Origin: Alphaproteobacteria bacterium
GTDB lineage: Bacteria; Pseudomonadota; Alphaproteobacteria; JAAXGF01
Reading direction: 5' to 3'
Length of the DNA stretch: 64,000 bases
NCBI GenBank assembly: GCA_963555825.3
Contig: CAUVXB020000001.1
Location: forward strand, 1,824,001-1,888,000
Shown: piece by piece, positions 28,889-53,040 of the stretch
Numbering within the stretch: position 1 is the first letter of the stretch
Layout of the letters: each line of letters opens with the position of its first letter
Notes under the pieces: model-generated
Told to the model about the DNA's origin: nothing
The model's input: the letters and a program-made list of their open reading frames with translations, nothing else
Databases searched by the model: none
Program-made: the position numbers and the translations under genes

Positions 28889-29482
28889 ATGGCCAATGAA
28901 TCAGACACCACCTACGACTGGGCCCAAGCGATCTTTGAGGTAATGATGTCTGGTTCAGAGGTTCTCGACGAACTAGTCAAGAGTGCACATCTAGACGCAA
29001 AAGGCGGCGATCTTCGGGACATTGACCTTACCAATCTCGATCTATCGGGGAAGGATCTATGTGGTTGGGATTTGCGCAACGCAAAATTCGGCAACAGTCG
29101 CTTAAGCGGAACAGATTTTCGTGGGGCGAAGATGGATCCATTTGAACTGGTTCAATCCGTGAATTGGAAAGAAGCTATACTTGACGATAATCTTGTAGAC
29201 GAGGTCGCCAAAATTGAATCGTTGATTCGATTGTATGCCAAATTGCTGTTGCCAATTTCGGACCTCGAATTATCTGTGCGTGCTTCTACCAGTCTAAAGA
29301 ACGTTAAAATAACTTACCTCGGAGATTTGGTTCAAAATACATATAATGATTTGTTAAGAATTCCTAACTTTGGAAGAAAATCGCTTTATGAAGTGAAAAA
29401 CATACTTGCAGACATGGGGCTGCATCTCGAAATGGAGCTTAACGACTGGCGACCCGAAAACTTGGTGTCTGACGAAATTTGA
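28889..29482 (+). CDS. Pentapeptide-repeat protein fused to an RNA polymerase alpha-subunit C-terminal domain
   Basis: Repeats GDLRD/IDLTN/LDLSG/KDLCG/WDLRN/AKFGN/SRLSG/TDFRG, then LLPISDLELSVRASTSLKN..ITYLGDLVQ....DLLRIPNFGRKSLYEVK..LADMGLHL.M....WRPENL. Confidence 0.85.
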   Translation: MANESDTTYDWAQAIFEVMMSGSEVLDELVKSAHLDAKGGDLRDIDLTNLDLSGKDLCGWDLRNAKFGNSRLSGTDFRGAKMDPFELVQSVNWKEAILDDNLVDEVAKIESLIRLYAKLLLPISDLELSVRASTSLKNVKITYLGDLVQNTYNDLLRIPNFGRKSLYEVKNILADMGLHLEMELNDWRPENLVSDEI

Positions 29483-30011: not shown

Positions 30012-33000
30012 ATGCCTGACGACCGCTGGCAGTTCTGGATCGACCGGGGCGGGACGTTTACCGATATCGTCGCGCGCAAGCCCGGCGGCGGGCTGGTGAC
30101 GCATAAGCTGCTCTCCGAGAACCCGGGGCCGTACGACGACGCGGCGTTGCAGGGCATCCGTGAGCTGCTCGGCGTCGGCCGGGGCGCCGCGATCCCGACT
30201 GCGCCGATCGATGTCGTCAAGATGGGCACGACGGTCGCGACCAACGCATTGCTCGAGCGCCAGGGTGACCGGACGGTGCTGCTGATCACCGAAGGCTTCG
30301 CCGACGCGCTGCGCATCGGCTATCAGAACCGGCCCGACATCTTCGCTCGCGATATCCGGCTGCCGAGACTGGTTTACGAACGCGTCATCGAGGCCTCCGC
30401 GCGGATGACCGCCGACGGAGAGGAACTCACGCCGCTCGACGAGGCCGCGGTGCGCGCCGGGCTCGAAGCGGCGTTCGGCGACGGCATCCGTTCGGTCGCC
30501 ATCGTCTTCATGCACGGTTACCGGTACCACGGCCACGAGGCGCGGGCGGCCGAGATCGCGGTCGAGATCGGCTTCACGCAGATCTCGGTGTCGCACCGGG
30601 TCAGCCCGCTGATGAAGCTGGTCAGCCGCGGCGATACCACGGTGGTCGACGCCTATCTCTCGCCGATCCTGCGGCGCTATGTCGACCGCGTCGCCGACGA
30701 GCTCGACGAGGTGCGGCTGATGTTCATGCAGTCGAACGGCGGGCTGACCGACGCGCGGCTGTTCCAGGGCAAGGACTCGATCCTCTCAGGTCCCGCCGGC
30801 GGCGTCGTCGGCGCGGTCAAGGCGAGCGAACTCGCCGGCATCGAGCGGATCATCGGCTTCGACATGGGCGGCACCTCGACCGACGTCTCGCACTACCGGG
30901 GCGAATACGAGCGCGCCTTCATGACCGAGGTCTCGGGCGTGCGCATGCGCGCGCCGATGATGCGCATCCACACGATTGCCGCCGGTGGCGGCTCGATCCT
31001 GTTGTTCGACGGCGCGCGCATGCGCGTCGGCCCGCGCTCGGCCGGCGCCCAGCCCGGCCCGGCGTGCTACCGGAACGGCGGACCGCTCACCGTGACCGAC
31101 GCCAACCTGATGGTCGGCAAGCTGATCCCCTCGCTGTTCCCCAAGGTGTTCGGGCCCGGTCGGGCCGAGGCGCTCGACACCGATGTGGTGCACGAAAAGT
31201 TCGCCGCGCTCGCCGCCGAGATCGAGGGCGCGACCGGTGCCGCGCGTACGCCGCAAGAGACCGCCGACGGCTTCCTCGCCATCGCGGTCGAGAACATGGC
31301 GCGCGCGATTAAGGAGATCTCGGTGCACCGCGGCCACGACGTCACCGGCTACACGCTCGCCTGCTTCGGCGGCGCCGGCGGCCAGCACGCCTGCCGCGTG
31401 GCCGACGCGCTGGGCATGACGAAGGGCTTCATCCACCCCTATGCCGGGGTACTTTCGGCCTATGGCATGGGCCTCGCCGACGTGCGCGCGATGCGCGAAC
31501 GCGCGGTCGAGGCGCGGCTCGACGACGGCATCATCGCGGAACTGGCCGACGGCCTCGATGCGCTGGCCGCCGAAGCGCGTGGCGAACTCGAGGACCAAGG
31601 CGTCGCGGCCGACGAGATGCGCCTGCTGCGCAAGCTCCACTTGCGCTACGACGGCACCGACAGCGCGTTGATCGTCGACTTCGCCGACCGCGCCGGCATC
31701 GTCGCCGGGTTCGAGGACGCGCACCGCCAGCGCTATGGCTTCGTCGTGCCCGAGAAGGCGCATATCGTCGAGGCCATCGCGGTCGAGGCGATCGGCGCCA
31801 TGGCCGTCATAGACGAGCCACCGATCGCGCGCCGCGAGACCGGCGCCCTCGCGCCGGTCACGACGACCGAGATGTACTCGGGCGGCGAGACCCACGCGAC
31901 ACCGGTCTATCGCCGCGAGGACATCCGCGCCGGCGACACCGCCGACGGCCCGGCGATCGTCGTCGAGCCGACCAGCACGACCGTCGTCGAGCCCGGCTGG
32001 CGGGCCGCGGTCAACGATCGCGGCCACCTGCTGCTCGAGCGCGTCGTGCCGCTCGAGCGCGCCGCGGCGATCGGCACGGCGGTCGATCCGGTGATGCTCG
32101 AAATCTTCAACAATCTCTTCATGTCGATCGCCGAGCAGATGGGCGTGACGCTCGAGAACACCAGCTACTCGGTCAACATGAAGGAGCGGCTCGACTTCTC
32201 CTGCGCGGTGTTCGATCAGGGCGGCGGGCTGATCGCCAACGCGCCCCACATGCCGGTCCATTTGGGCTCGATGGGCGAGAGCGTGCAGGCGGTCATCGCC
32301 CAGCGCCGCGCGACCATGAAGCCGGGCGACGTGTTCGCGCTCAATGCGCCCTACAACGGCGGCACGCATCTGCCCGACATCACCGTGGTGACGCCGGTGT
32401 TCGACGATGCCGGCGAGACCGTTTGGTTCTACGTCGGCTCACGCGGCCACCACGCCGACATCGGCGGCAGCACGCCGGGCTCGATGCCGCCCGATTCGAC
32501 GACGGTCGAGGAGGAAGGCGTGCTGATCGACGACTTCCAGCTGGTCGAGGCGGGCCGCTTCCTCGAGGCGGAACTGCGCGCGCTGCTGAATTCGGGCCGC
32601 TGGCCGGCGCGCAACCCGGACCAGAACGTCGCCGACCTCAAGGCGCAGATCGCCTCATGCGCCAAGGGCGTCGCCGAGCTGCGCAAGATGGTCGACCACT
32701 TCTCGCTGGCGACCGTCCAGGCCTACATGCAGCACGTCCAGGACAACGCCGAGGAATCGGTACGCCGCGTACTCGACGTCTTGAAGGACGGCGAATTCGC
32801 CTATCCGCTCGACGAGGGCGGCGTGATCCGCGTCGCGATCACCATCGACAAGGCGGCGCGGCGCGCGGCGGTCGACTTCAGCGGCACCTCGGAACAGCGC
32901 AGCAGCAACTTCAACGCGCCCTCTGCGGTGTGCCGGGCGGCGGTGCTCTACGTCTTCCGCACCCTCGTCGACGACGAAATCCCGATGAACGAGGGCTGCC

Positions 33001-33617
33001 TGAAACCGATCGACATCGTCATCCCGGAAGGCTCGATGCTGCGCCCGCAATACCCGGCCGCGGTGGTCGCCGGCAACGTCGAGACCTCGCAGTGCATCGT
33101 CGATGCGCTGTATGGCGCGCTCGGCGTCATCGCCGCGTCGCAGGGCACGATGAACAACTTCACCTTCGGCAACGACCGCTGGCAATACTACGAGACGGTC
33201 TGCGGCGGCGCCGGCGCCGGACCCGACTTCGACGGCACCGACGCGGTGCACACGCATATGACGAACTCGCGCATCACCGACCCCGAAGTGCTCGAATGGC
33301 GCTTCCCGGTGCTGCTCGAGCGGTTCTCGATCCGGCATGGCTCGGGCGGCGCGGGCCGCCGGCACGGCGGCGACGGCACGGTCCGGCGCATCCGCTTCCG
33401 CCAGCCGATGACCGCGGCGATCCTGTCGTGCCACCGCACGGTCGCGCCCTTCGGCGTCGCCGGTGGCGCCAACGCCCAGACGGGTCACTGTTACGTCGAA
33501 CGCGCCGACGGTGGCCGCGACGAACTCCGCGCCTGCGACCAGACCGAGATGACGGCCGGCGACGTCTTCGTCATCGAGACACCGGGCGGCGGCGGCTTCG
33601 GCGCGCCGGATGGTTAG
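30012..33617 (+). CDS. Fused hydantoinase A/B / ATP-dependent 5-oxoprolinase
   Basis: [87 protein letters not shown] and TPGGGG motifs. Confidence 0.95.
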
Positions 33618-33754: not shown

Positions 33755-35050
33755 ATGCTGAACGTTCTGTGGTCGGTTAGCGCGCTGCTCACCGGCGTCG
33801 CCTTTCTGGGCATCGCCAACGGGTTGATGTTCACGCTGTTGGGCGTGCGCATGTCGATCGACGGCGTCTCGTCGCAGATGATCGGCATCGTCGGCTCGGC
33901 CTATTTCCTCGGCCTGTTGAGCGGCACCGTGTTCTGCGGCCGGGTCATCCGCCGCGTCGGGCACATTCGGGCCTTTACCGCCTTCGCCGCGATCGCGGCC
34001 ATCGCGTGCTTGTTGCACATCCTGATCGCGCCGGTCTGGGCCTGGGCGCTGTTCCGCGTCGCCATGGGCTTCTGCAGCGCCGGGCTCTTCATGATCGCCG
34101 AATCCTGGCTGCAGTACGTCGCCACCAGCGATATCCGCGGCCGTATCTATGCCTGTTACGCGATCGCCAGTTCGGCCGGCGCCGGCGTCGGGCCGCTGCT
34201 GATCAACCTGGGCGATCCGGCGAGCTACGAGATCTTCGCGATCGGCGCCATGCTGTTCTCGATCTGCCTGCTGCCGGTGGCGCTGACCCATGTCGGCGAC
34301 CCCGAGCACGAGGAGGATAGCCGCTTCGGCATCCGCGAGCTGTTCGCGATCTCGCCCGTCGCCGTGACCGGCGCCGTCTGCGCCGGGATGGTCAGCGGCG
34401 CCATCGCGACCATGAGCGCGGTGTTCGCCGAGCGCATCGGGCTGTCGGCGGTCTACATCTCGCTGTTCGTCTCGGCGATGCGTCTCGGCGGCTTCTCGAT
34501 GCAGTATCCGATCGGCGCGCTGTCGGATCGATTCGACCGGCGCCGCGTGCTGATCTTCCTGTGTCTCGGCGCGGCCGTCGCCTCGCTGCTCTACCTCGCG
34601 CCGGTCGCCGGGTTGCCGCTGGTCATCCTCGCGCTCGCGGTCGTCTTCGGCGCACTCAACCAGCCGATCCAAGCGCTGATCGTCTCGCACGCTTACGACT
34701 ACGTGGAGCGCAAGGATTTCGTCGCGACCAGCGCCGGGTTGCTGTTTGCCTACGGCCTCGGCGCCATCATCGGGCCGATCGCGGCGGCGCCGATGATGGA
34801 CCTGATGGGGCCGTCCGGCCTGTTCGTCTTCGCCGCCGCGGTGCTGCTCGTCTATGGCGGCTTCGTCGCATACCGCATGCGCCAGCGCGGCGCGGTGCCA
34901 CACGACGTCAAGACCGATTTCGTCGTCATCCCGAAGGAGATCCCGGCCGCCACCAAGCTGGATCCGCGCGCCCAGCGGGAACCCGACGAGCAAATGTCGG
35001 CCGAGGCGCGCGAGATGCAGCGCGAGCTCGACGAGGTCCGGTGGAGTTGA
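33755..35050 (+). CDS. MFS transporter (YcaD-like)
   Basis: About 12 hydrophobic segments; RRVGHIRAF, ESWL, RGRI and GALSDRFDRRRV motifs. Confidence 0.9.
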   Translation: MLNVLWSVSALLTGVAFLGIANGLMFTLLGVRMSIDGVSSQMIGIVGSAYFLGLLSGTVFCGRVIRRVGHIRAFTAFAAIAAIACLLHILIAPVWAWALFRVAMGFCSAGLFMIAESWLQYVATSDIRGRIYACYAIASSAGAGVGPLLINLGDPASYEIFAIGAMLFSICLLPVALTHVGDPEHEEDSRFGIRELFAISPVAVTGAVCAGMVSGAIATMSAVFAERIGLSAVYISLFVSAMRLGGFSMQYPIGALSDRFDRRRVLIFLCLGAAVASLLYLAPVAGLPLVILALAVVFGALNQPIQALIVSHAYDYVERKDFVATSAGLLFAYGLGAIIGPIAAAPMMDLMGPSGLFVFAAAVLLVYGGFVAYRMRQRGAVPHDVKTDFVVIPKEIPAATKLDPRAQREPDEQMSAEAREMQRELDEVRWS

Positions 35051-35058
35051 TCCACGGT

Positions 35059-35994
35059 ATGAGCGCGTTCTTGCGCTGGCTCGCGCGGCACGCCGCCGTG
35101 CTGCTCGCGGTCGGCGTCTTCGCCGGCCTCGCGCTGCCGCCGCTCGCCGCGCTCTTGCGGCCGCTCCTGGTGCCGGCGATCTCGCTCACCCTGGTCGTCA
35201 CCATCGCGCGCCTCGACTGGCGGGCGATGGCCGGCCACGGCCGCCGCATTGGCCTGACCGCGCTAGTCGTCGGCTGGCTGCTGCTGGTCTCGCCGGTGGT
35301 CGTCTGGTTCGTCGCCGACGCGCTCGGCGCGCCGGCCGCGCTGGTCACCGCGCTGACCCTGATGGCGGCGGCGCCGGCGATCATGTCGGCGCCCGCATTC
35401 GCGCTGATCCTCGGGCTCGACGCGCCGCTCGCCGTCGTCGTCGTCACCGTGGCGACGCTCGCGACGCCGTTCACGCTGCCGCCTGTCGCGCTCGCCCTCT
35501 TGGACCTCGACATCGACATCGGCGTCGCCGAGCTGATGCTGCGGCTCGCGGCGATCATCGGCGGCACTTTCGCTGCCGCTTACCTGTTCAAGCGGCTCGC
35601 GCCCGACGGCTGGATCGCCGCGCGCACGGCCGAGCTCGACGGCGTCGCGGTCGTCGCGCTGCTGGTCTTCGCGGTCGGCATCATGGACGGCGTCACGGCG
35701 CGATTGGTCGAGCGGCCCGGTTTCGTCATGCTGTGCATCGCCGCCGCCTTCGCCGCCAACCTGGCGCTTCAAGCCGCCGGCGCGCTGATCTTCGGGCCGA
35801 CGGGCATATCACGCGCGCTGACGCTCGGCCTGGCCAGCGGAAACCGCAACATGGGCCTGGTGCTCGCCGTGCTCGCCGACAAGGCCGACTTCGACGTCGT
35901 CGTCTTCTTCGCCGTCGGCCAGCTGCCGATGTACATCCTGCCGGCGCTGCTGCGGCCGCTCTACCGGCGCATGCTCGGCGCTCGGAACGCGTAG
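35059..35994 (+). CDS. Bile acid:sodium symporter / arsenite-efflux-like membrane protein
   Basis: Highly hydrophobic; AAPAIMSAPAFA..LGLD and GNRNMGL motifs; ATG 8 nt after the MFS stop. Confidence 0.75.
   Translation: MSAFLRWLARHAAVLLAVGVFAGLALPPLAALLRPLLVPAISLTLVVTIARLDWRAMAGHGRRIGLTALVVGWLLLVSPVVVWFVADALGAPAALVTALTLMAAAPAIMSAPAFALILGLDAPLAVVVVTVATLATPFTLPPVALALLDLDIDIGVAELMLRLAAIIGGTFAAAYLFKRLAPDGWIAARTAELDGVAVVALLVFAVGIMDGVTARLVERPGFVMLCIAAAFAANLALQAAGALIFGPTGISRALTLGLASGNRNMGLVLAVLADKADFDVVVFFAVGQLPMYILPALLRPLYRRMLGARNA
35726..35969 (+). repeat. Direct repeat copy 1 (3' end of the symporter gene)
   Basis: Near-identical to 41643-41877. Confidence 0.92.
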
Positions 35995-36246: not shown

Positions 36247-36672
36247 AACGCCGGTCAGCTTTCGAGTATAGCTTGGACCCTTGTCTACGCTGCGTTTGCT
36301 CGGGGTATCGTCGGTTTATCCGCAATCTCGAGCCCGGCGCGCGTTACATCCTTCGACAAAGAAGAATCGTAATGAATTCAGGGCGGCTATCTACTGTTTC
36401 CGAGGTTCCGGTAATCGTCCCGCCACCGGCAATATCTGTCCTGGCATTGAACTGGGTTCCACCAGCATTGTCATCGACCGGAGGGAAACTGCCATTCCAA
36501 GGCTCGAGATTGTGGCGATGCGCAGAACCCGTGAATGACCCGGCGCCATGGTTGTGTGTGTTCGCGCCGCCCGTGACTCCCACAGTAGCCGCAGCCATCA
36601 AGAATTTTCCATCGAAGGCAGCAACATGAGCGAAACCCGCAGGACAGAAGTTACTGTTACCCCACAGGATGA

Positions 36673-38122
36673 GGGGATGTCCCGGTCGATGTTGAAAAGT
36701 TGAGGTAGGTGTCGCTCTCCTGGAGCCGTTAGGCTCCGGGTGCTGCAAACCCAAAAGGGAGAACGACACCATGGGAAAGAATATCCGTAGTTCCAGCCGC
36801 CCGAAAGCCCTTGCCCCCTCGATTCCTATGCCGCCGCTGGCGGACGCGATGGACGCAGTCCATCTCAGCGTGGATCGGTTTTGTCTTCTGGCCGGGGTCG
36901 AGGCCTTGGCCGAGATGATGGAGGAGGACGCCACGACCGTGTGCGGGGCCCGACATCGCCGCCATGGGGACCGTCGAGGTTATCGCTGGGGCAGGACACA
37001 TAGCGAGATCGGCTACCACGGCGGCAAAGTGAAGGTGGCCCGGCCACGGGTTCGTGACCGGGCGGGCAAAGAGGTGAGCTTGGAGAGTTGGCAGGCGCTA
37101 CGCGATGGCAACCTGCTGCTCGAGTGGGCGCTCAACCTGATGGTGCTGAACGTGTCGACCCGCAAGTACCACCGCGCGGTCCGTCTGCCCGAGGGCGACC
37201 TGGCGAAAGCGCGTGGCGACGGCACCTCGAAGTCGGCCGTTTCCCGGCGCTTTGTGGCGCTGTCACGCAAGAAGATGAAGGCCTGGCTCGCCTCGGATCT
37301 CTCGGAACTCGACCTGCTAGTCATCCAGATCGACGGTCTGCATGTCGGCGACCATGTCCTGATGGCGGCGATCGGCGTCGATGGCAACGGCGACAAGCAT
37401 GTCCTGGCCGTGGTCGAGGGGGCGACGGAGAACACGGTCGTCGTCCAGGCCTTGATCGACAATCTCCTCGCCAGGGGGCTCGATCCGACACTGCCGCGGC
37501 TGTTCATCGTCGATGGCGCGAAGGCACTCAGCAAAGCGATCCGAAACACCTTCGGTGTGGCCGCCGCCATCCAGCGCTGCCAGGTCCACAAGGGCCGTAA
37601 CATCATCGAGCGCCTGCCCCAACATTTGCACGCGAGCGTCAAGAAGGCGCTCCGTCAGGCCTGGGACCAGGACGACGCAAACAAGGCCGAGCGGCTCTTG
37701 CGCAACCTGGTCCGGCGTCTGGAGCATGAGGAACCGGGCGTCTCGGGCAGCATCCTGGAGGGGCTGGACGAGATCCTCACCGTCATCCGCCTCGGCCTGC
37801 CGCACGAACTCCGGCGCTCGCTCGCCTGCACCAACATCGTCGAGAACGCGCTCGGCACGGTGCGCCAGGTCACCCGCAACGTCAAACGCTGGAGACACGC
37901 CGAGATGGCGCTCAGATGGACCGCCGCCGGCCTGCTGGAGGCCCAGAAAACCTTCCGTCGCCTCAAGGCCTATCGCCAGCTGCCCATCCTCCGAAATGCT
38001 CTCCAGGAACACTTGAGAAAGGCTCAGGCCGACAGTGCCATTGAAACCATCATGAAGGCAGCATAGCATCATCAACCAGCGACGCCTGCCCCACGAATTT
38101 CAACAGAGATAGGGACATCGCC
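36673..38122 (+). mobile_element. IS256-family element, 1450 bp, with target duplication
   Basis: GGGGATGTCCC...GGGACATCGCC ends; AGGATGA duplicated (36666-36672 and 38123-38129). Confidence 0.95.
36771..38066 (+). CDS. IS256 (Mutator) transposase
   Basis: VSTRKY, SKSAVSR, IQIDG, FIVDGAKAL, QRCQVHK.RN and TNIVEN motifs. Confidence 0.95.
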   Translation: MGKNIRSSSRPKALAPSIPMPPLADAMDAVHLSVDRFCLLAGVEALAEMMEEDATTVCGARHRRHGDRRGYRWGRTHSEIGYHGGKVKVARPRVRDRAGKEVSLESWQALRDGNLLLEWALNLMVLNVSTRKYHRAVRLPEGDLAKARGDGTSKSAVSRRFVALSRKKMKAWLASDLSELDLLVIQIDGLHVGDHVLMAAIGVDGNGDKHVLAVVEGATENTVVVQALIDNLLARGLDPTLPRLFIVDGAKALSKAIRNTFGVAAAIQRCQVHKGRNIIERLPQHLHASVKKALRQAWDQDDANKAERLLRNLVRRLEHEEPGVSGSILEGLDEILTVIRLGLPHELRRSLACTNIVENALGTVRQVTRNVKRWRHAEMALRWTAAGLLEAQKTFRRLKAYRQLPILRNALQEHLRKAQADSAIETIMKAA

Positions 38123-41642: not shown

Positions 41643-41877
41643 TCATGCTGTGCATCGCCGCCGCCTTCGCCGCCAACCTGGCGCTTCAAGCCGCCGGCGC
41701 GCTGATCTTCGGGCCGACGGGCATATCACGCGCGCTGACGCTCGGCCTGGCCAGCGGAAACCGCAACATGGGCCTGGTGCTCGCCGACAAGGCCGACTTC
41801 GACGTCGTCGTCTTTTTCGCCGTCGGTCAGCTGCCGATGTACATCCTGCCGGCGCTGCTGCGGCCGCTCTACCGGCG
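41643..41877 (+). repeat. Direct repeat copy 2 (orphan symporter 3' end, runs to TAG 41896)
   Basis: Matches 35726-35969 apart from a 9-nt deletion and a few SNPs; has a different terminus (RLMRSG*). Confidence 0.92.
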
Positions 41878-43573: not shown

Positions 43574-45023
43574 GGCGATGTCCCTATCTCTGTTGAAATT
43601 CGTGGGGCAGGCGTCGCTGGTTGATGATGCTATGCTGCCTTCATGATGGTTTCAATGGCACTGTCGGCCTGAGCCTTTCTCAAGTGTTCCTGGAGAGCAT
43701 TTCGGAGGATGGGCAGCTGGCGATAGGCCTTGAGGCGACGGAAGGTTTTCTGGGCCTCCAGCAGGCCGGCGGCGGTCCATCTGAGCGCCATCTCGGCGTG
43801 TCTCCAGCGTTTGACGTTGCGGGTGACCTGGCGCACCGTGCCGAGCGCGTTCTCGACGATGTTGGTGCAGGCGAGCGAGCGCCGGAGTTCGTGCGGCAGG
43901 CCGAGGCGGATGACGGTGAGGATCTCGTCCAGCCCCTCCAGGATGCTGCCCGAGACGCCCGGTTCCTCATGCTCCAGACGCCGGACCAGGTTGCGCAAGA
44001 GCCGCTCGGCCTTGTTTGCGTCGTCCTGGTCCCAGGCCTGACGGAGCGCCTTCTTGACGCTCGCGTGCAAATGTTGGGGCAGGCGCTCGATGATGTTACG
44101 GCCCTTGTGGACCTGGCAGCGCTGGATGGCGGCGGCCACACCGAAGGTGTTTCGGATCGCTTTGCTGAGTGCCTTCGCGCCATCGACGATGAACAGCCGC
44201 GGCAGTGTCGGATCGAGCCCCCTGGCGAGGAGATTGTCGATCAAGGCCTGGACGACGACCGTGTTCTCCGTCGCCCCCTCGACCACGGCCAGGACATGCT
44301 TGTCGCCGTTGCCATCGACGCCGATCGCCGCCATCAGGACATGGTCGCCGACATGCAGACCGTCGATCTGGATGACTAGCAGGTCGAGTTCCGAGAGATC
44401 CGAGGCGAGCCAGGCCTTCATCTTCTTGCGTGACAGCGCCACAAAGCGCCGGGAAACGGCCGACTTCGAGGTGCCGTCGCCACGCGCTTTCGCCAGGTCG
44501 CCCTCGGGCAGACGGACCGCGCGGTGGTACTTGCGGGTCGACACGTTCAGCACCATCAGGTTGAGCGCCCACTCGAGCAGCAGGTTGCCATCGCGTAGCG
44601 CCTGCCAACTCTCCAAGCTCACCTCTTTGCCCGCCCGGTCACGAACCCGTGGCCGGGCCACCTTCACTTTGCCGCCGTGGTAGCCGATCTCGCTATGTGT
44701 CCTGCCCCAGCGATAACCTCGACGGTCCCCATGGCGGCGATGTCGGGCCCCGCACACGGTCGTGGCGTCCTCCTCCATCATCTCGGCCAAGGCCTCGACC
44801 CCGGCCAGAAGACAAAACCGATCCACGCTGAGATGGACTGCGTCCATCGCGTCCGCCAGCGGCGGCATAGGAATCGAGGGGGCAAGGGCTTTCGGGCGGC
44901 TGGAACTACGGATATTCTTTCCCATGGTGTCGTTCTCCCTTTTGGGTTTGCAGCACCCGGAGCCTAACGGCTCCAGGAGAGCGACACCTACCTCAACTTT
45001 TCAACATCGACCGGGACATCCCC
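43574..45023 (-). mobile_element. IS256-family element, 1450 bp, no target duplication
   Basis: Reverse complement of 36673-38122; the flanks do not match each other. Confidence 0.95.
43630..44925 (-). CDS. IS256 transposase
   Basis: Protein identical to 36771-38066. Confidence 0.95.
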   Translation of the reverse strand: MGKNIRSSSRPKALAPSIPMPPLADAMDAVHLSVDRFCLLAGVEALAEMMEEDATTVCGARHRRHGDRRGYRWGRTHSEIGYHGGKVKVARPRVRDRAGKEVSLESWQALRDGNLLLEWALNLMVLNVSTRKYHRAVRLPEGDLAKARGDGTSKSAVSRRFVALSRKKMKAWLASDLSELDLLVIQIDGLHVGDHVLMAAIGVDGNGDKHVLAVVEGATENTVVVQALIDNLLARGLDPTLPRLFIVDGAKALSKAIRNTFGVAAAIQRCQVHKGRNIIERLPQHLHASVKKALRQAWDQDDANKAERLLRNLVRRLEHEEPGVSGSILEGLDEILTVIRLGLPHELRRSLACTNIVENALGTVRQVTRNVKRWRHAEMALRWTAAGLLEAQKTFRRLKAYRQLPILRNALQEHLRKAQADSAIETIMKAA

Positions 45024-45741
45024 TGAAGAACGCGCAGAACGCGTAGACGTCAAGGTTTTAAGGAAATATGAGCCAGCTGTTGAAGTCGTTCCACCTTTCC
45101 AGGCCGTTATAGACGGATGGACATCCATCGATATTGATAGCCAATGCAATATCTTGGGGTTTATGGGTTTGGACTCTGGCTTCCCCGCCGTCCCATTTCC
45201 TGAGGGTGTAGATCAACTTCAGTTGAAAGCGAAGCAGTTCTTTGCAATTTCTCAGATTGCAATCCGCTCGCTGGGGTCGAATTTTCGTTATCTTGATGGA
45301 GGACGAACGGAACCGGACACAGCCAATGGCCCCTTTCGTTTTGATTTCCGAGGTGAGCTTGCCTTGCAGGAGCGGGACGTTGCTGTATCAGCGCATTGTA
45401 CGTCTCAGAAGAGCCCCGTGCGAGCAGAGCAGATTGAGGACTTGGCTGCGCGGTCACGAGCCAGATGCGCTGATGTGACGTTTCTTTTCGCGATTTCGTC
45501 ATTTGCCGAGAACGGACTAAAGCTTGCGAGACAGGCTGGGATCCAACCGATCCTTGTGACCTCCAGAACTCCTCCATTCCGTAATGTCCTTCGGATCGCC
45601 ATCGATTCGTTAGATGGGGAGGTGATTAGATACCCGGCTCATAGCTTTTGGCATCCTGTAGTCGATAATGACATATCAAGATTTGATGAGATACGTCGGC
45701 GAGAGCAGATTCTGGAGACTTTTCCGATCTTCTCGTGCTAA
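45024..45741 (+). pseudogene. 5'-truncated low-GC protein with a C-terminal Mrr-like restriction-endonuclease fold
   Basis: Frame is open back to the IS end; FDF.G....AVSAHCT..KSPV.AEQIEDL......FLFA.SSFAENGLKLARQAGI matches the Mrr_cat layout. Confidence 0.55.
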
Positions 45742-45959: not shown

Positions 45960-47144
45960 TCACACCGGCTGGTCGTGCATTTCGAGGTGAAGGCGCTTGC
46001 CGGTGTACGGGTTGGCCTCGGCGACCGCCTCGTCGAGCTCGACGCCGATGCCAGGCGCGGTCGGCGGGATGATGTAGCCGTCCTGCCACTGTAACGGGGC
46101 CTTGAGGATCTCGGCGTGGAAGCCGCCGCAGGTCAGGATGCACTCTTGGATCAGGAAGTTGGGGCTGCAGGCGCCGATCTGGATGTTCGCCGCGGCCTCG
46201 ATCGGCCCGCAATAGAGATGCGGCGCGATCTGCGCGTAATGCGCCTCGGCCATGCCGGCGATCTTCTTGGCCTCGAGGATGCCGCCGACCCGGCCGAGCG
46301 CCATCTGCAGGATCGACGCCGCCTGCTTGGCCAGCACCCGGGCGAACTCGTACTTTGTCGTCAGCCGCTCGCCGGTCGCGATGGGAATAGACGTCTGGCG
46401 CGCGACACACGCCATCTCGTCGACGTTCTCGGGCGGCACCGGCTCTTCGAACCACAACGGGTCGTAGGGTTCCAGCCGCCTGGCGAGGCGGATCGCGCCC
46501 GCCGTGGTCATCTGGCCGTGGCTGCCGAACAACAGATCGGCGCGGCTGCCGACCGCCTCGCGAATTTTCCCGCAGAAGGTCTCGGCGCGATCGAGCGCCT
46601 CGAGCGAGAGCTGGCGCGGATCGAAGGCCGAGAACGGACCAACGGGGTCGAACTTGACCGCGGTGAAACCCATGTCGACGTACTCGGCGGCGCGCTGGGC
46701 GGCGAGGTCGGCGTCGGTATAGACGTCGGCCGCATCGCCCTCGGCCGGGTAGAGATAGCTGTACGAGCGCAGCTTTTCGTGCACCTGGCCGCCGAGCAGC
46801 TCGTAGACCGGCTTGCCGAGCTCCTTGCCGATGATGTCCCAGCACGCCGTCTCGATGCCGCTCAGGACGCCCATCAACGAGGCATCGGGGCGCAGCAGAA
46901 ACCCAGAGCCATAGACGACTCGCCATAGCCGCTCGATCTTGAACGGATCGGCGCCGATGACGTGGAGCTCACAAACGTCCTCGATCATCTTGGCGACGAC
47001 GTCGGGGTGGAACGGCACCGAGTAGACCTCGCCGTAACCGTCGATGCCCGAATCGGTGGTCAGCTTGACGAAGACCCAGTAAGCGCCGCCGAAATGGGGC
47101 GGCGGATTGCCCACCACGAAGACCTTGGCGTCGGAATTTTTCAT
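45960..47144 (-). CDS. Mandelate racemase / muconate lactonizing enzyme family (galactonate dehydratase-like)
   Basis: GYGE, SGIETACWDI.GK..GKPVYELLGG, AVKFDP, WFEEPV, IATGERL, APH and PGIG motifs. Confidence 0.92.
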   Translation of the reverse strand: MKNSDAKVFVVGNPPPHFGGAYWVFVKLTTDSGIDGYGEVYSVPFHPDVVAKMIEDVCELHVIGADPFKIERLWRVVYGSGFLLRPDASLMGVLSGIETACWDIIGKELGKPVYELLGGQVHEKLRSYSYLYPAEGDAADVYTDADLAAQRAAEYVDMGFTAVKFDPVGPFSAFDPRQLSLEALDRAETFCGKIREAVGSRADLLFGSHGQMTTAGAIRLARRLEPYDPLWFEEPVPPENVDEMACVARQTSIPIATGERLTTKYEFARVLAKQAASILQMALGRVGGILEAKKIAGMAEAHYAQIAPHLYCGPIEAAANIQIGACSPNFLIQECILTCGGFHAEILKAPLQWQDGYIIPPTAPGIGVELDEAVAEANPYTGKRLHLEMHDQPV

Positions 47145-47235
47145 GGCCGCAAACTCATGCAATGTCCTGACGTCATAGAGACCAGCGGCGAGCCGGATGC
47201 AAGTGCCGAATCGCGCGCCACCCCATGGAGTTTCA

Positions 47236-47324
47236 CTGTTTACAATAAACATAAGCAGTTTACAATTTATACGCAATCGGACGTACGTGGTCCGCCAGGG
47301 TGGTTTTTAATTGTATACTGCTTA
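47236..47324. promoter_or_regulatory. AT-rich operator-like region with a 16-bp inverted repeat and three GT(A/T)TACAAT boxes
   Basis: TAAGCAGTTTACAATT (47252-47267) versus AATTGTATACTGCTTA (47309-47324), 15/16 match; an extra GTTTACAAT at 47238. Confidence 0.5.
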
Positions 47325-47351: not shown

Positions 47352-49061
47352 CTATCGAAGCATATAGGCGCGGCTCAGCGCGACCGTCTCGACCGGCTCC
47401 GACGCCGCCAAATCGCCGTCGACGAAGACCTCGAAGGTCTGCGAATCGACGCGGATATCTGGGTAGGCGTCGTTGTGCAGCATGTCGCGCTTGGTCAGCT
47501 TGCGGGTCTCGCCGAGCGGCAGCAGGGGAATCGCGATGTCGTGCCGGCCGGCCAGGTCGCCGTCCAGCGCGTGGCGATGCACGAAGGCCGCGTTGAGCGT
47601 CGAGGGCGCCGACCCCGTCGCGCCCCATGACGGCCGCATTATGTTCGGCTCGACGTGGCCGAGCGCGCCGGCTGCGTCGCCCATCGGGCCCCATGCCATC
47701 ATGCCGCCCTTGATGACCATCGCCGGCTTGACGCCGAAGAAGGCCGGTTGCCAGAGCACGATATCGGCCATCTTGCCCGGCTCGAGCGAGCCGATGTAGG
47801 CGTCGATGCCGAAGGTGCGCGCCGCGTTGATGGTGTATTTCGCGATGTAGCGCAGGATGCGTGCGTTATCGGCGTCGGCGTAGGGCTCGTGCGCCAGCGG
47901 ACCGCGCTCGTCCTTCATCTTGGCGGCGAGCTGCCAGGTCCGCAGCACGACCTCGGCGACGCGCCCCATGCCCTCGGAATCGGAGCCCATCATCGAGATC
48001 GCGCCGAGATCGTGCAATACGTCCTCGGCAGCCATGGTCTGGGGCCTCAGCCGGCTGTCGGCGAAGGCGACGTCCTCGGGCACGTCTGGGCTCAACTCGT
48101 GGCACAGCATCATCATGTCGAGATGCTCGTCGAACGCGTTGCGCGTGAACGGGTTGGTCGGGTTGGTCGACGACGGCAGGCAGTGGGGCTCGCCGTTGCA
48201 CCGGATGATGTCGGGCGCGTGGCCGCCGCCGGCGCCCTCGGTGTGGTACATGTGGACTGTGCGGCCGGCGATCGCCTCCATGGTGCGTTCGTAGAAGCCG
48301 GTCTCGTTCATCGTGTCGGCGTGGAGTTGGACCTGGAAGTCGTAATCGTCGGCGACCGAAAGACAGGTGTCGATGGTCGCCGGCATGGCGCCGATGTCCT
48401 CGTGGATCTTGACGCCGATGACGCCGCTGGCGAGCTGTTCGATGATTCCCTCGGGCCGGTGCGCGCTGCCGCGGCTGAACAGGCCGAAGTTCATCGGAAA
48501 GCCTTCGGCGCCCCTGAGCATCCGCGTGTTCGACCAGACGCCGCCCGAATCCACCGCCCAGCAACCGGGATAGCCGCCGCCGATCATCGTCGTGAGCCCG
48601 CTGCTCAGCGCGTGCCAGACCTCGGCGGGCTGGATGTAGTGGGCGTGCACGTCGATGCCGCCGGGCGTCGCGATCAGGCCTTGGGCGGGCACCGGCTTGG
48701 TCGACGGGCCGACGATCAGGCCGTCGTCGACGCCCGCCATGGTCGCCGGGTTGCCGGCCTTGCCGAGGCCGGTGATCTTGCCATCGCGGATGCCCAGATC
48801 GCCCTTCACGACGCCGAGCACGGGATCGATGATCAGCACGTTGTTAAGCACCATGTCGACCGCGCCGTCGGCGGCCGTGTGGCCGGCGGCGACCGCGCCG
48901 CCGTCGCGCATGGTCTTGCCCAGGCCGGTCAGGCACTCCTCGCCGTAGGTCGCGTGGTCGCGCTCGACCCTGGCGAGCAGGCTGGTGTCGCCGAGCCGCA
49001 CCCGGTCGCCGGTGGTCGGTCCGTACATCGCCGCGTAGTCGCGCCGTGAGATCGTCGCCAT
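47352..49061 (-). CDS. ureC: Divergent urease alpha-subunit-like Ni amidohydrolase
   Basis: [63 protein letters not shown] flap, [14 protein letters not shown] and GKMAD motifs. Confidence 0.9.
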
Positions 49062-49064
49062 GGT

Positions 49065-49766
49065 TCAGGTCCCCCGGTAGCCCTGCTCGCGGGCGCGTTG
49101 CAGCGCCGCTTGCTTGACCGCCTCGTCATGCACCGAACCGTCGGTCAGGTTGTTCAGGCCGGTGATTTCGCCGCTGCCGCCAAACGCGACCAGGATGACC
49201 TCCTTGCTCTCGCCCGGTTCGAAGCGGGCGGTGAGGCCGGCGGCGACGTCGAGGCGCATGCCGAACGCCAAGGCGCGGTCGAACTCGAGCGCCTTGTTGG
49301 CCTCGAAGAAGTGATAGTGGCTCGAGACCTGGACCGGCCGGTCGCCGGTGTTGAGCACGACCAACGTCACCCGGGGCCGGCCGGCGTTGAGCGCGATCTC
49401 GCCGTCCTCGGTGATGATCTCGCCGGGCCGCGACGCTGGGGTCTCGGCGACCGCGTCGGCGCCCGGCCGGATCGGGTCGTGGACGGTGATCATCTTGGCG
49501 CCGTCCTCGAAATGTGCCTCGACCAGCAGGATGGGGATCAGCCGGCGAACACCGGGCAAGACGTCGTCGGACGTCAACAGCGTCGAGCCGTATGCCATCA
49601 ACTCGGCCAGGCCCCTGCCGTCGCGGGCGCCCTCGATCAGCTCGTCTGAGAGATAGGCGATCGCCTCGGGATGATTGAGCTTCAGGCCGCGCGCCTTGCG
49701 CCGGCGCGCCAGCTCGGCGGCCATGAAGATAGTCAACCGTTCCATCTCGGTCGGGGTCAGCAGCAT
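49065..49766 (-). CDS. ureAB: Fused urease gamma/beta subunit
   Basis: Gamma half: [32 protein letters not shown]. Beta half: [29 protein letters not shown]. Confidence 0.92.
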
Positions 49767-49803
49767 CCGTCGTCCTCCTTCCCTGGGGTGATCGTCAGCA
49801 GGT

Positions 49804-50688
49804 TCACTTGCGCCGCCGTCCGGGAGGATGTCCGGTCAGCGCGCGGCGCGCGGCGCTCCACAGCGCGCGCATGGCGGCGTTCAACGCGACGCCGTCGCTG
49901 GCGGTGATCCGGGCCCAGGCGCCGCAGTCGTTGGCAAGCGTCGAGGCGGCGCCGTAGACGGTTTCTCCCAGCGCGTCGAGGCCGCCTCTCAAGGCATCCG
50001 CCAAAGGCCCCGCGTCGCGCCCGCGATCGATGACGGCGAACGTGCCGTGGGCGCCGTGGCCGCCGGTGACACCGATGCGCCGCGCGGCGATCTCGACACC
50101 CGTCACCGCGTAGCGGTCGAGCGCCAGGAGCCGGCCGGCCCAATCGACGATGCGAAGCGTGCTCTCCAACGCCTCGAACGGCGTGTCTTCGCCGTCGGGA
50201 TCGTGTCCGATATAGCTTTCGCCGATGGTCACGGTGGCATCGTCGTCGATGGTGACGTCGAGCGTCGAGCTCAGTGTCGCGCCGGGGAACAGGATAGTCG
50301 CATCGGGCATGTATTCGAGATACGCGCCCGCCGCCGCGCTGAGCGCGACGAATTGGCCCGCCCGGTCGGGCGCCGTGCGATGGACGATGGTGGCGGCCTG
50401 AGTCGTGACATGCGTCCGGGCGCCTGTCCGGGCCGTGATGTCGATGCGCTGCCGGTCGCCGGCGAAAAGCCCGCCGGCGGTCGACTGGATGTAGACCGTC
50501 GCCATGCCCGGCGCGTCGCCGTCGAGATAGAGAGCGCGGCCCAAATGGAACGGATAGCCGGCGTGTTGGTCGGCGACATGGGTCCGGCCGTCCGGGTCGC
50601 TTCGGAATTCGAGCTTCAGTCGTCCTTCGCGCAAGCTTCGCTCGGCCGGCGCCTCGCGCGGGGTGCGCTCAATCGAGGAAAAGGACAT
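49804..50688 (-). CDS. ureD: Urease accessory protein UreD/UreH
   Basis: [19 protein letters not shown] and LEYMPD.TILFPGA motifs. Confidence 0.9.
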
Positions 50689-51304
50689 CGCGTGACAACC
50701 GATCGACGACCCGGTCGATGCCTTCGCCGGTCGCGCAGTTGGTCAGCAGGATGGGTTTGCCGTTCCTGATCGCCGTGCCGTCGCAAACCATGACGTCGAG
50801 GTCGGCGCCGACCAGCGGCGCGAGGTCGATCTTGTTGATGACCAGAAGATCCGAACGCACGATGCCCGGCCCCTTCTTGCGCGGGATGTCGTCGCCGCCG
50901 GCCGCGTCGATGACGAACAGCCAGTAGTCGACCAGATCGAACGAAAAGGTCGATGCCAGGTTGTCGCCGCCCGATTCGATGATCACGACCGAAACGTCGC
51001 TAAAGTCGTCGATCAACCGCTCGACCGCCTGGATGTTCAAGGTAGGGTCCTCGCGGATCGCGGTGTGCGGACAGGCGCCCGTCTCAACCGCGAGCACGCG
51101 CGCGGCGTCGATCAGGCCACTCCGCCTGAGACGCTCGGCGTCCCCGCGCGTCACCAGGTCGTTGGTGACCACGGCGACTTCGGCGCCGCGCGCGCCGAGC
51201 GCGGGGATCAGCCGCTCGATCAGCACCGTCTTGCCCGAGCCGACCGGCCCGCCGATGCCGATGCGCGCGACCGAGCGCGGGATGGCTTGGGGCGTGGCGG
51301 TCAT
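50669..51304 (-). CDS. ureG: Urease accessory GTPase UreG
   Basis: [36 protein letters not shown] and INKIDLAP motifs. Confidence 0.95.
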
Positions 51305-51331
51305 CGATGTCTCTCCCCCGGTGTCGCTTCG

Positions 51332-52009
51332 CTAATTCATGAACAGGCGGGTCTCCGCCGTCTCGTGGCGCATGCTGGCGATCTCGGTCTGGGGCACGAA
51401 GGCGGCGATCTCCTCGATCGGACACGGCGGTCGATCGAGCGCCTCGGCGACCGGTTCGGCCACGCGCGTCAGGATGCGTTGCGCGTCGACGTGGCCGATC
51501 ACGCCGAGCCTGACGGCTGCGCCCAAGAGCCCGATGCACAGACTATGCGCCGAAAGCGCGCCCAGCGCGGCGCGCCCGACGCCGGCGTCGCGCCACACCA
51601 TGCCTTGCACGATGGCGAGATGGCCCAGTGCGTCGCCGCGCGCGATGCGCCGCCGGTAGGCGTCGGCCCGCGGCGTGCCGAGCCGCGCGTGGACGCCGAG
51701 CAGGGCCGCGCCAGCACGGCGCGAGCCCACGCGCAGCTCGCACGCCAGCGTCTGCGCCTCGACGCGCGCATCGACGCCACAGAGCGCATCGGGATCGTCG
51801 GCGTGGTCGAAGGCGTGGCGCGTCACCGGCCAGTCGAAGCCCGCCCAGCGGCCCGAGATCTGGCCCGCGACGAAGGCCGAGACATCGTCCGCGTCGGCGA
51901 CGATACCGTCGGCGCAGAGGCCCTCGAGGCCCCAGGAAAACGATGTCGCGCCGCCGGGAAAAAAGCTGTCGCCGTGCTGGAGCAGTGCGAGGAAGGACGG
52001 GTCAGTCAT
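51332..52009 (-). CDS. ureF: Urease accessory protein UreF
   Basis: LLQHGDSFFPGG..SFSWGLE, AAVRL..IG and the C-terminal RHE....RLFMN motif. Confidence 0.92.
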   Translation of the reverse strand: MTDPSFLALLQHGDSFFPGGATSFSWGLEGLCADGIVADADDVSAFVAGQISGRWAGFDWPVTRHAFDHADDPDALCGVDARVEAQTLACELRVGSRRAGAALLGVHARLGTPRADAYRRRIARGDALGHLAIVQGMVWRDAGVGRAALGALSAHSLCIGLLGAAVRLGVIGHVDAQRILTRVAEPVAEALDRPPCPIEEIAAFVPQTEIASMRHETAETRLFMN

Positions 52010-52457
52010 CCGCCGGTCTCCGCGCGCGCCCGTCATCGAGGAACGGTTTGAGGCGCGCGAGGTAGTCGGCCTCCGGACCCTCGAGCGCGATCAGGATATG
52101 CGCCCCATCGAAGCGGACGCGCCAGTGCAGGTTGCCGGCGAAATAGCCGAGCTCGAGCGCAGCCGTCGTATCGCGCGGCGCGAGTTCGAGCCAGCGTTCC
52201 TCGGTCATCTGGACGACGATGGCGCGGTCGTCGTCGAGCGCGACGACCGCGCCGTCCGAGAGCCGCTGGTCGCCGGGCAGCGCGACGGCGCAGTCGGTTC
52301 CAAGGTCGGTCGTCGCCCGCAGCCGCCGGCGGAGAGTGTCGTCGCGCGCGAGCGTTAGATGCTCGACCCGCCCCCCGGCGTGCGCCAGATCGTGGAGTCG
52401 CTGAGCGATCTCCGGCTCGCTGGCAAAGCCGATGATGGTGGTGACGGCGATCGGCAT
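52002..52457 (-). CDS. ureE: Urease accessory protein UreE (no His-rich tail)
   Basis: RRRLRATTD.G, L.DG.V and LGY.AGNLHW motifs. Confidence 0.85.
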   Translation of the reverse strand: MPIAVTTIIGFASEPEIAQRLHDLAHAGGRVEHLTLARDDTLRRRLRATTDLGTDCAVALPGDQRLSDGAVVALDDDRAIVVQMTEERWLELAPRDTTAALELGYFAGNLHWRVRFDGAHILIALEGPEADYLARLKPFLDDGRARRPADD

Positions 52458-52633
52458 TGTGACCAAGGCCTGGGTTGGCGTGCAGGGCGACGGCAAAGGT
52501 TAGATCATCGTAGCATGACTGTCACCCGGCGGTGGCGCCAACGTCTCGTCAGGACTGGCCGCTCGCGGCCGCCCGCCGGATCACCGACGAGATGGCAGGC
52601 GCTGCCGGCTAATGCGATGAACAACGAAGTTTT

Positions 52634-52756
52634 TCAAGATCCACCGCCGAATTTTACCAGGGTTATGGCGAAAAAGAGCAACGCAAACCCGAGCAGCATT
52701 GCCGCAACCGTCAGGTTTAATCGGCGCTTTCGTCTGTGGTGTTCGGTAATCGGCAT
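52634..52756 (-). CDS. 40-aa membrane peptide, CoxF-like
   Basis: MPITEHHRRKRRLNLTVAAMLLGFALLFFAITLVKFGGGS: basic patch, N and one TM helix, downstream of the cox operon. Confidence 0.55.
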   Translation of the reverse strand: MPITEHHRRKRRLNLTVAAMLLGFALLFFAITLVKFGGGS

Positions 52757-52875: not shown

Positions 52876-53040
52876 CTATTCGCCGCTGTCATCGCGCCTT
52901 AGCCTGTATCTGCGCCACTTCGCCTCGGCCACGAAGACAACAACGAACACGACAGCAATCGCCAGCAGGATCAGTGGCCCTAGGCTCCCCACCGAATCTA
53001 CGCCACTCGCGCCATGTGCCAACGCTGGCGAAATCAACAT
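52876..53040 (-). CDS. 54-aa membrane peptide
   Basis: RBS AGGACGGA; MLISPALAHGASGVDSVGSLGPLILLAIAVVFVVVFVAEAKWRRYRLRRDDSGE has one TM helix and a basic tail. Confidence 0.5.
   Translation of the reverse strand: MLISPALAHGASGVDSVGSLGPLILLAIAVVFVVVFVAEAKWRRYRLRRDDSGE

Follow-up and report, generated by a model that had tools for sequence, protein, structure and literature searches.

A urease-type gene cluster with a divergent catalytic subunit in an alphaproteobacterial genome, and urea or a substituted urea as its candidate substrate

From its first crystallisation onward, urease has been regarded as a family with a single substrate, and no member is known whose physiological substrate is not urea. 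Does the locus described here fit that picture? It consists of six urease-type genes on the minus strand of a 64,000-nucleotide stretch of Alphaproteobacteria bacterium DNA (hereafter the window; GenBank assembly GCA_963555825.3, contig CAUVXB020000001.1, positions 1,824,001 to 1,888,000), and its catalytic subunit, UreC, is set apart by the residues round the urea site from each of the 151 canonical and type II sequences with which it was compared. A preliminary description of this DNA had proposed a urease paralogue with dedicated maturases, acting on a substituted urea, a carbamate or an amide. The comparisons reported here lead us to conclude that the locus probably encodes a functional nickel enzyme of the urease family, (UreAB-UreC)n, together with its UreE, UreF, UreG and UreD maturation set, and we give urea an even chance of being the physiological substrate in this genome. 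The refuting condition set with the earlier proposal, substitutions private to this genome, does not hold, and the behaviour as a paralogue is borne out; the dedicated maturases and the specificity of the short loop and of A363G do not.

The six genes, described beforehand as intact and tightly packed, are indeed so in the list of open reading frames (ORFs), with spacings that range from a 35-nucleotide overlap to a 37-nucleotide gap. In transcription order they read ureE-F-G-D-(AB)-C and probably form one operon; Pfam and NCBIfam assign names to all six products. The first gene, ureE (52002-52496), encodes a nickel chaperone of 164 residues if translation starts at the TTG at 52496, or of 151 residues from the in-frame ATG at 52457, which had been taken as the 5' limit of the cluster (the 3' limit, 47352, stands). 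Its product scores 179 against a cut-off of 162 for NF009752 and is 63% identical to the orthologue of the related genome G005. It is followed by ureF (51332-52036; 234 residues, Pfam UreF E-value 2e-28, 54% identity to the G005 orthologue over residues 2-234), by ureG (50669-51304; 211 residues), which encodes the nickel-inserting GTPase and is the sole ureG of the genome (TIGR00101, 246 against 204), and by ureD (49804-50688; 294 residues, Pfam UreD E-value 1e-36, 45-47% identity to the G005 and G010 orthologues). The four accessory proteins align nearly end to end with orthologues from a sister genus, and the UreG translation contains what we take to be the P-loop and the Cys-Pro-His nickel motif. 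The catalytic pair comes last: ureAB (49065-49766) encodes fused gamma and beta subunits in 233 residues (Pfam Urease_gamma and Urease_beta; NF009671, 333 against 243), and ureC (47352-49061) encodes the alpha subunit, 569 residues long and belonging to a divergent clade labelled 'PGCW'.

UreC reaches 740 bits with TIGR01792 (urease alpha, EC 3.5.1.5; equivalog cut-off 680) and 786 bits with NF009686 (cut-off 354), and scores under the cut-offs of four narrower urease models. When aligned by phmmer to Klebsiella aerogenes UreC (1ejw_C, E-value 7e-185), whose numbering is used unless stated, it retains the nickel ligands H134, H136, H246, H272 and D360 and the carbamylated lysine K217, as well as the catalytic or urea-contacting residues H219, D221, G277, C319, H320 and R336, as had been read from the letters alone, and also M364. 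The metal ligands (H139, H141, K218, H247, H273 and D361 in query numbering) are invariant among 29 sequences of the clade. With such a centre, a nickel-bridging hydroxide would be expected to attack the carbonyl of H2N-CO-X by urease chemistry, while H219, D221, H320, R336, C319 and G277 would polarise and protonate the carbamoyl amide.

The same alignment confirms every substitution quoted in the preliminary description. The K. aerogenes loop GGGTGPAAGTHATTCTPG corresponds to a query loop that is four residues shorter (codons of residues 161-176 at 48534-48581, minus strand); HEDWG becomes HEDIG, CHHL becomes CHEL and SDSQAMGR becomes SDSEGMGR, the codon of Glu363, which corresponds to K. 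aerogenes Q362, lying at 47973-47975 (minus strand). In addition, the N-terminal EEVKFGGGKVIRDG is altered and FGGGK is replaced by TGLGK. The motifs GGGTGPxxGTxATTCTPG, HEDWG, CHHL and SDSQAMGR are near-invariant in ureases generally, and all four differ in the query. HMMER places an Ala (a Ser in relatives) opposite A167 of K. aerogenes, and the main-chain carbonyl contributed by A167 may therefore be preserved.

These changes are not private to one genome. Among the 120 best database relatives of the query UreC (63-87% identity), 45, at 66-87% identity, share the loop GGG[FYW]PG[CA]W and HED[I/L/V]G, and in a FastTree phylogeny of 128 rows with a midpoint root a clade of 45 rows that includes the query is recovered with a support of 100. 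The clade is marked by an invariant loop Trp, by HED[I/L]G and by the exchange of Gln for Glu at position 362. W168, D171, S172, G173, G174 (query numbering) and all catalytic residues are invariant among the 29 members, and Glu363 is present in at least 90% of them. When 55 clade sequences are set against 144 of type II and 7 canonical ones, position 362 is Glu in 98% of the former and Gln in 100% of the latter; L216V, L250M, T308A, I337L, I342M and F193L are further clade-specific changes at otherwise fixed positions, together with a Phe to Tyr change at query residue 142 and a swap of GP to PG in the loop. Measured against two sister-genus orthologues, the ratio of nonsynonymous to synonymous substitution rates (dN/dS) of ureC is 0.17-0.18; it is 0.18 for ureG, 0.27 for ureE and 0.43-0.50 for ureD. 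Substitutions shared across a clade under purifying selection thus do not reflect decay private to this genome.

How far the clade extends was also approached at the DNA level. Among 401 genomes of the class, 8 contain a match to a degenerate pattern for GGGxPGCW, which matches the window at 48558-48581, and 2 contain a match to the reversed control; one match, in the unpublished genome G057, was left out of account. In four of five genomes that were followed up the match lies off the Urease_alpha locus or the genome has no Urease_alpha, and we regard these as chance matches; the match in G340 sits on a different contig from its Urease_alpha match. Only G000 and G226 carry clearly real matches, the place in G226 corresponding to the G044 locus. 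As a measure of prevalence the pattern says no more than 'rare', and an order-level search of 13 genomes added nothing.

Which part of the altered pocket belongs to the clade itself becomes apparent from its nearest large family. This family, type II, has a UreC 61-66% identical to that of the query and has the short loop and Gly363 in common with it; its loop, GGSLGPITVGID, is three residues shorter than the canonical one. It keeps HEDWG, CHHL and Gln362 (SDSQGMGR), a signature from which the query departs. Judged from sequence, the short loop and A363G are therefore traits of a far larger family, and the pocket described as rewritten reduces, as far as the clade is concerned, to the loop Trp, W222I/L, Q362E and a variable residue 321. 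Type II members include Bradyrhizobium, Aminobacter, Labrys, Methyloversatilis and Dongia soli, and their genes are ordered ureE-F-(AB)-C-G-D in most of the loci L026-L093; the exceptions are clusters cut by contig ends, L060 in which no ureE was detected, and L042 in which ureE-F lies about 4 kb apart. Our literature search returned no biochemical study of type II ureases, nor any record of a urease phenotype for Dongia soli, whose genome has a type II UreC only. Many type II loci carry arginase-family genes about 1-3 kb upstream of ureE, and in two of them (L030, 4211-6338; L036, 4966-7093) there is also a weak UreG/HypB-like match of 30-33% identity, an arrangement that resembles a guanidine-hydrolase module feeding urea to urease.

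The case for plain urea rests first on the complete catalytic machinery and on family-model scores above curated cut-offs, and the sister type II family, with a similar short loop, often adjoins arginase-family genes. It rests also on the content of the genome, which measures 6.04 Mb and is 99.3% complete. One Urease_alpha and one ureG were found in it; a second, canonical ureC was looked for and there is none, so that the query is the sole urease homologue. Agmatinase-family enzymes release urea, and the genome has six of their genes, five of them above the TIGR01230 cut-off; no urea carboxylase was found over its cut-off. Taken together, a sole urease, six agmatinase-family genes and no urea carboxylase favour urea as at least one real substrate, since the nitrogen of agmatinase-derived urea would, without the cluster, not be recoverable by any route found in the genome. 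With X as NH2, for which the chances appear balanced, the enzyme would be the only urease of the cell and would recover nitrogen from urea made inside it by the six agmatinase-family ureohydrolases. Release of urea within the cell would also explain why no urea importer is needed. In a genome-wide search the best UrtA match reached 74 bits, short of the cut-off of 493, but UrtA is missing from four canonical-urease genomes as well, and its absence is uninformative. The urea transporter UT and HupE/UreJ were likewise not found genome-wide, in a search that did not include NiCoT and Nik systems. Within the window, where the preliminary description had seen no urea or nickel transporter, none of the known ones occurs among 33 ORFs scanned with Pfam, which include a single MFS gene at 33755-35050.

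Several observations weigh against urea. The four motifs, constant in the 7 canonical sequences sampled, are altered in a clade-specific manner. A canonical urease is present alongside the clade enzyme in four of the eight genomes in which the clade was found (G000, G005, G010, G012 and G041-G044), two of the four being only 2.8 Mb in size. Neither a urea (ABC) transporter nor the Arginase family appears among the 25 most frequent of 134 Pfam families encoded near related loci. Finally, a structure search returned no solved structure from the clade or from the whole short-loop family, and a literature search neither a published assay of any clade member nor a characterised enzyme from that larger family.

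These observations leave room for another reading, that of the preliminary description, in which the enzyme is a nickel amidohydrolase that keeps urease chemistry and whose main substrate is an N-substituted urea or ureido compound, H2N-CO-NH-R, for example an N-carbamoyl amine. We hold this possible, at somewhat less than an even chance. The inner residues would hold the carbamoyl end, the new Trp, the Glu and the free flap residue 321 would accommodate R, which may be cationic, and the released amine would pass to a neighbouring class-III aminotransferase. Indeed, the clade-specific changes (the loop Trp, W222I/L, Q362E and free residue 321) adjoin the urea-contacting residues and do not hit them, which is the pattern expected from a changed group on the carbamoyl moiety. 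In inhibitor-docking work the equivalents of 166, 321 and 362 are reported to line the cavity beyond the urea site. The strict conservation of W168 among 29 sequences and of Glu at 362 in nearly all of the 55 points the same way. If urea is the substrate, the changes may tune affinity or broaden the range of accepted substrates. An AlphaFold2 model built on the 29-sequence clade alignment is too poor for a comparison of pockets, with a mean predicted local distance difference test score (pLDDT) of 55.9 and values below 50 at residues 160-173 and 271-375. Against the substituted-urea reading, no urease-family enzyme with a non-urea physiological substrate was found in the literature, known urease paralogues being either ureases (the iron urease UreA2B2) or inactive (Brucella ure2), and a genome with six agmatinase-family enzymes would be left with no other urease for their urea.

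The company that the clade keeps argues in favour of the substituted-urea reading. In the tree, the clade lies inside a group of 101 rows, with a support of 99, that excludes the 20 type II rows. Several further clades belong to this group, and each has a pocket signature of its own, such as HEDY/CHL, HEDY/[IV]HH/SDSMG, and HEDF/AHx or SHL. In sister clades the flap Cys319 is replaced by Ala, Ser, Val, Ile or Gly, and Gln362 by Met (L216, L217, L129, P0050-P0113). Different types also coexist in single genomes. Five genomes reached through named loci (G041-G045) were searched in full, and each has exactly one ureG over the cut-off together with two or three UreC: the clade and HEDY/IHH types in G041, the canonical, HEDY/VHH/SMG and clade types in G042, the canonical and clade types in both G043 and G044, and the HEDF/AHN type with type II in G045. 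A second UreC of some type is present in five of the eight clade genomes. The clade thus behaves as the urease paralogue that had been suspected, as it co-occurs with canonical urease and with other divergent UreC types.

The maturases, by contrast with what had been supposed, are not dedicated to it, since one ureG per genome goes with up to three UreC paralogues. In G041-G045 every catalytic pair examined stands apart from accessory genes. A separate ureE-F-G-D operon occurs in G041 and G042; G045 has its ureE some 5 kb away from ureF-G-D, and in G043 and G044 the search detected ureG-D alone. In the sister genus the accessory genes have the same E-F-G-D order as in the window and lie on another contig than ureAB-ureC. 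The accessory set of the relatives is therefore shared, and would serve up to three UreC including the canonical one, and the arrangement in the window is two operons set side by side. Synonymous divergence from the sister genus (loci L003, L005, L116 and L117) is 0.49-0.61 for ureC, about half of the 0.98-1.19 obtained for ureE, ureG and ureD, and on this account the history of the catalytic pair may differ from that of the accessory operon. The canonical ureABC genes of G043 and G042 (L224, 5321-6862; L225, 11166-13229) also have no adjacent accessory genes, and are flanked by genes of the MTTB family (non-pyrrolysine trimethylamine methyltransferase-like). In G041 the gene directly after the HEDY/IHH-type ureC encodes a family-5 solute-binding protein, and genes for a LysR regulator and an MTTB methyltransferase come further downstream.

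From this we put forward a tentative proposal, more doubtful than not in our judgement, that the urease family is not mono-functional. Fused gamma-beta (type II) ureases would have given rise to a radiation of paralogues that share UreEFGD, each clade acting on a carbamoyl or ureido compound of its own, and the query would be an N-carbamoyl-amine hydrolase feeding a class-III aminotransferase. The substrates would then come from the nitrogen-rich organic matter of hosts or of the sea.

Gene neighbourhoods give this proposal partial support. In all 17 related loci examined (16 of the clade and one sister), ureAB-ureC occurs with no accessory genes in the fetched flanks. The census of neighbours covered 98 proteins of at least 150 residues from these loci, with 134 Pfam families of which the 25 most frequent are listed, and gave counts of 7 for Aminotran_3, 6 each for DAO and MFS_1, 5 each for GCV_T and ECH, and 3 for TauD. 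An orthologous group of MFS proteins (63-72% identity) is encoded downstream of ureC in 6 of the 17 loci, directly adjacent in L020 and L155, and a class-III aminotransferase gene stands next to ureAB-ureC in 8 of the 17; these are not urea genes. However, the aminotransferases belong to two different subfamilies, and the counts overstate independence, since close kin are numerous among the 17 loci. In favour of urea, three of seven relatives, G005, G043 and G044, have an agmatinase-like gene no more than about 5 kb from the accessory operon (L116, 5589-6635, and L220 and L221 at about 4.9-5.1 kb, beside stand-alone ureEFGD genes). The L116 accessory locus also has a class-III aminotransferase gene, and L220 one for a family-5 solute-binding protein. 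None of these recurring partners, whether MFS, aminotransferase or agmatinase-like, is adjacent to the cluster in the window; the lack of the first two speaks against a substituted urea.

A different kind of explanation is that the enzyme is a urease isozyme that differs in metal or maturation and not in substrate, the changes reflecting its metal centre or sensitivity to oxygen. The occurrence of the relatives' catalytic pair apart from accessory genes is reminiscent of UreA2B2, which needs none, and UreA2B2 (3qga_C) is a clear homologue (E-value 3e-169). We nevertheless consider this very unlikely: a full ureEFGD set adjoins the pair and has evolved under purifying selection, the Cys-Pro-His motif of UreG is retained, none of the six metal ligands has changed, and ureG is kept by every searched clade genome that is at least 89% complete (G010 being at 89%), only G012, at 57%, being without one over the cut-off. 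Least credible of all is a decaying or inactive remnant in a symbiont genome ridden with insertion sequences (IS), like the inactive Brucella ure2, for although the cluster is surrounded by identical IS copies and repeated fragments, the six genes are full length against their orthologues, dN/dS is 0.17-0.5 and the substitutions are common to 45 of the 120 database relatives at 66-87% identity.

The remainder of the window provides further observations. Two IS copies with a Mutator-family transposase (36672-38122 and 43574-45024) are 1451 nucleotides long, 100% identical and inverted, and enclose 5451 nucleotides; a segment of about 250 nucleotides at 35726-35969 is repeated at 41643-41877 with 91-98% identity. 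The identical inverted copies and the repeat point to a recent rearrangement between the ure cluster and the genes for MFS and hydantoinase. The latter are a fused hydantoinase A/B gene of the oxoprolinase family (30012-33617, 1201 residues), followed by the MFS gene noted above, which lies 12 kb from the cluster, on the far side of both IS copies, and whose product is 38-41% identical to the group encoded downstream of ureC. The hydantoinase was considered as a link to creatinine breakdown and rejected, since none of the loci fetched has a homologue of it close to ureC; among NCBIfam models it matches caprolactamase best, far under the cut-off. A 'creatinase-like' M24 neighbour in three related loci is nearest to ectoine hydrolase, again far under the cut-off, and provides no evidence of creatine breakdown. 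Downstream of ureC, on the same strand, an enolase-superfamily gene at 45960-47276 is galactonate dehydratase-like (278 bits against a cut-off of 311); it was rejected as a conserved partner of ureC as it has no counterpart in any related locus. In a patch of low GC (0.51), a 197-residue ORF at 28889-29482 encodes a pentapeptide repeat and an RNA polymerase alpha C-terminal domain in one protein. Upstream of ureE, a promoter-like site at 52995-53022 (minus strand) is a weak consensus match only, with 9 of 12 hexamer positions, and two such sites were found in the region against 0.9 expected from shuffled sequences. An Rfam scan of the window returned no riboswitch and no other family.

As for habitat, 17 listed sequencing runs from several studies contain half or more of the words sampled from the stretch, and three DNA runs labelled sponge metagenome contain 83-87% of them. 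The sponge-metagenome runs fit the many IS copies and gene fragments in the window. Passages of PMC6742649, cited here as background, describe the use of host creatine, creatinine and urea by sponge symbionts. Two metatranscriptome runs from two studies yielded short contigs, free of mismatches, on ureE (52223-52480 and 52457-52636), ureF (51881-52080), the ureD/ureAB junction (49767-49918) and ureC (48679-48835). They are scattered, 150-300 nucleotides long and of depth 3-10, so that uncovered parts carry no meaning; as DNA carry-over is possible in RNA libraries, they are weak evidence and do not show transcription.

With catalytic genes and maturases side by side, the window offers a complete example of a clade that is conserved and uncharacterised. 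If a substituted urea were the preferred substrate, this would be the first new activity in the urease family, it would add a nickel-dependent step to nitrogen recycling in marine and symbiont settings, and it would show that one UreDEFG set matures several different enzymes. If the enzyme is a plain urease, motifs supposed to be invariant can shift a long way, which bears on ureC surveys, annotation and inhibitor design. The cluster spans only 5.1 kb, which puts the substrate within direct reach of heterologous expression.

Compared with known systems, the best solved relative is K. aerogenes UreABC with UreDEFG (1ejw, 2kau; EC 3.5.1.5), which shares the six metal ligands, the carbamylated Lys, the catalytic residues and the four accessory proteins. 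The query differs from it in the fusion of gamma and beta subunits, in the order E-F-G-D-AB-C and in a loop that is four residues shorter and carries a Trp. Another is the type II enzyme of Bradyrhizobium sp. BTAi1 and Pseudomonas syringae B728a, with fused ureAB, the short loop and A363G, whose ureEF(AB)CGD cluster type was described in 2008 (PMC2492869). Type II accessory proteins are of the same lineage as those of the query (UreE 44-61% and UreG 63-74% identity), whereas the query has the order E-F-G-D-(AB)-C in place of E-F-AB-C-G-D and falls outside the type II clade. The two-gene ure(AB)C locus of Streptomyces coelicolor (SCO5525/5526), mentioned in PMC2492869, pairs a fused gamma/beta with an alpha subunit and has no adjacent accessory genes, like all 17 related loci; in the window, unlike there, ureAB-ureC directly follows ureEFGD. 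Lastly, the Helicobacter mustelae iron urease UreA2B2 (3qga) is a homologous paralogue with a fused small subunit that stands beside a standard urease. It works with iron and without accessory proteins, whereas the query has a complete nickel maturation set attached.

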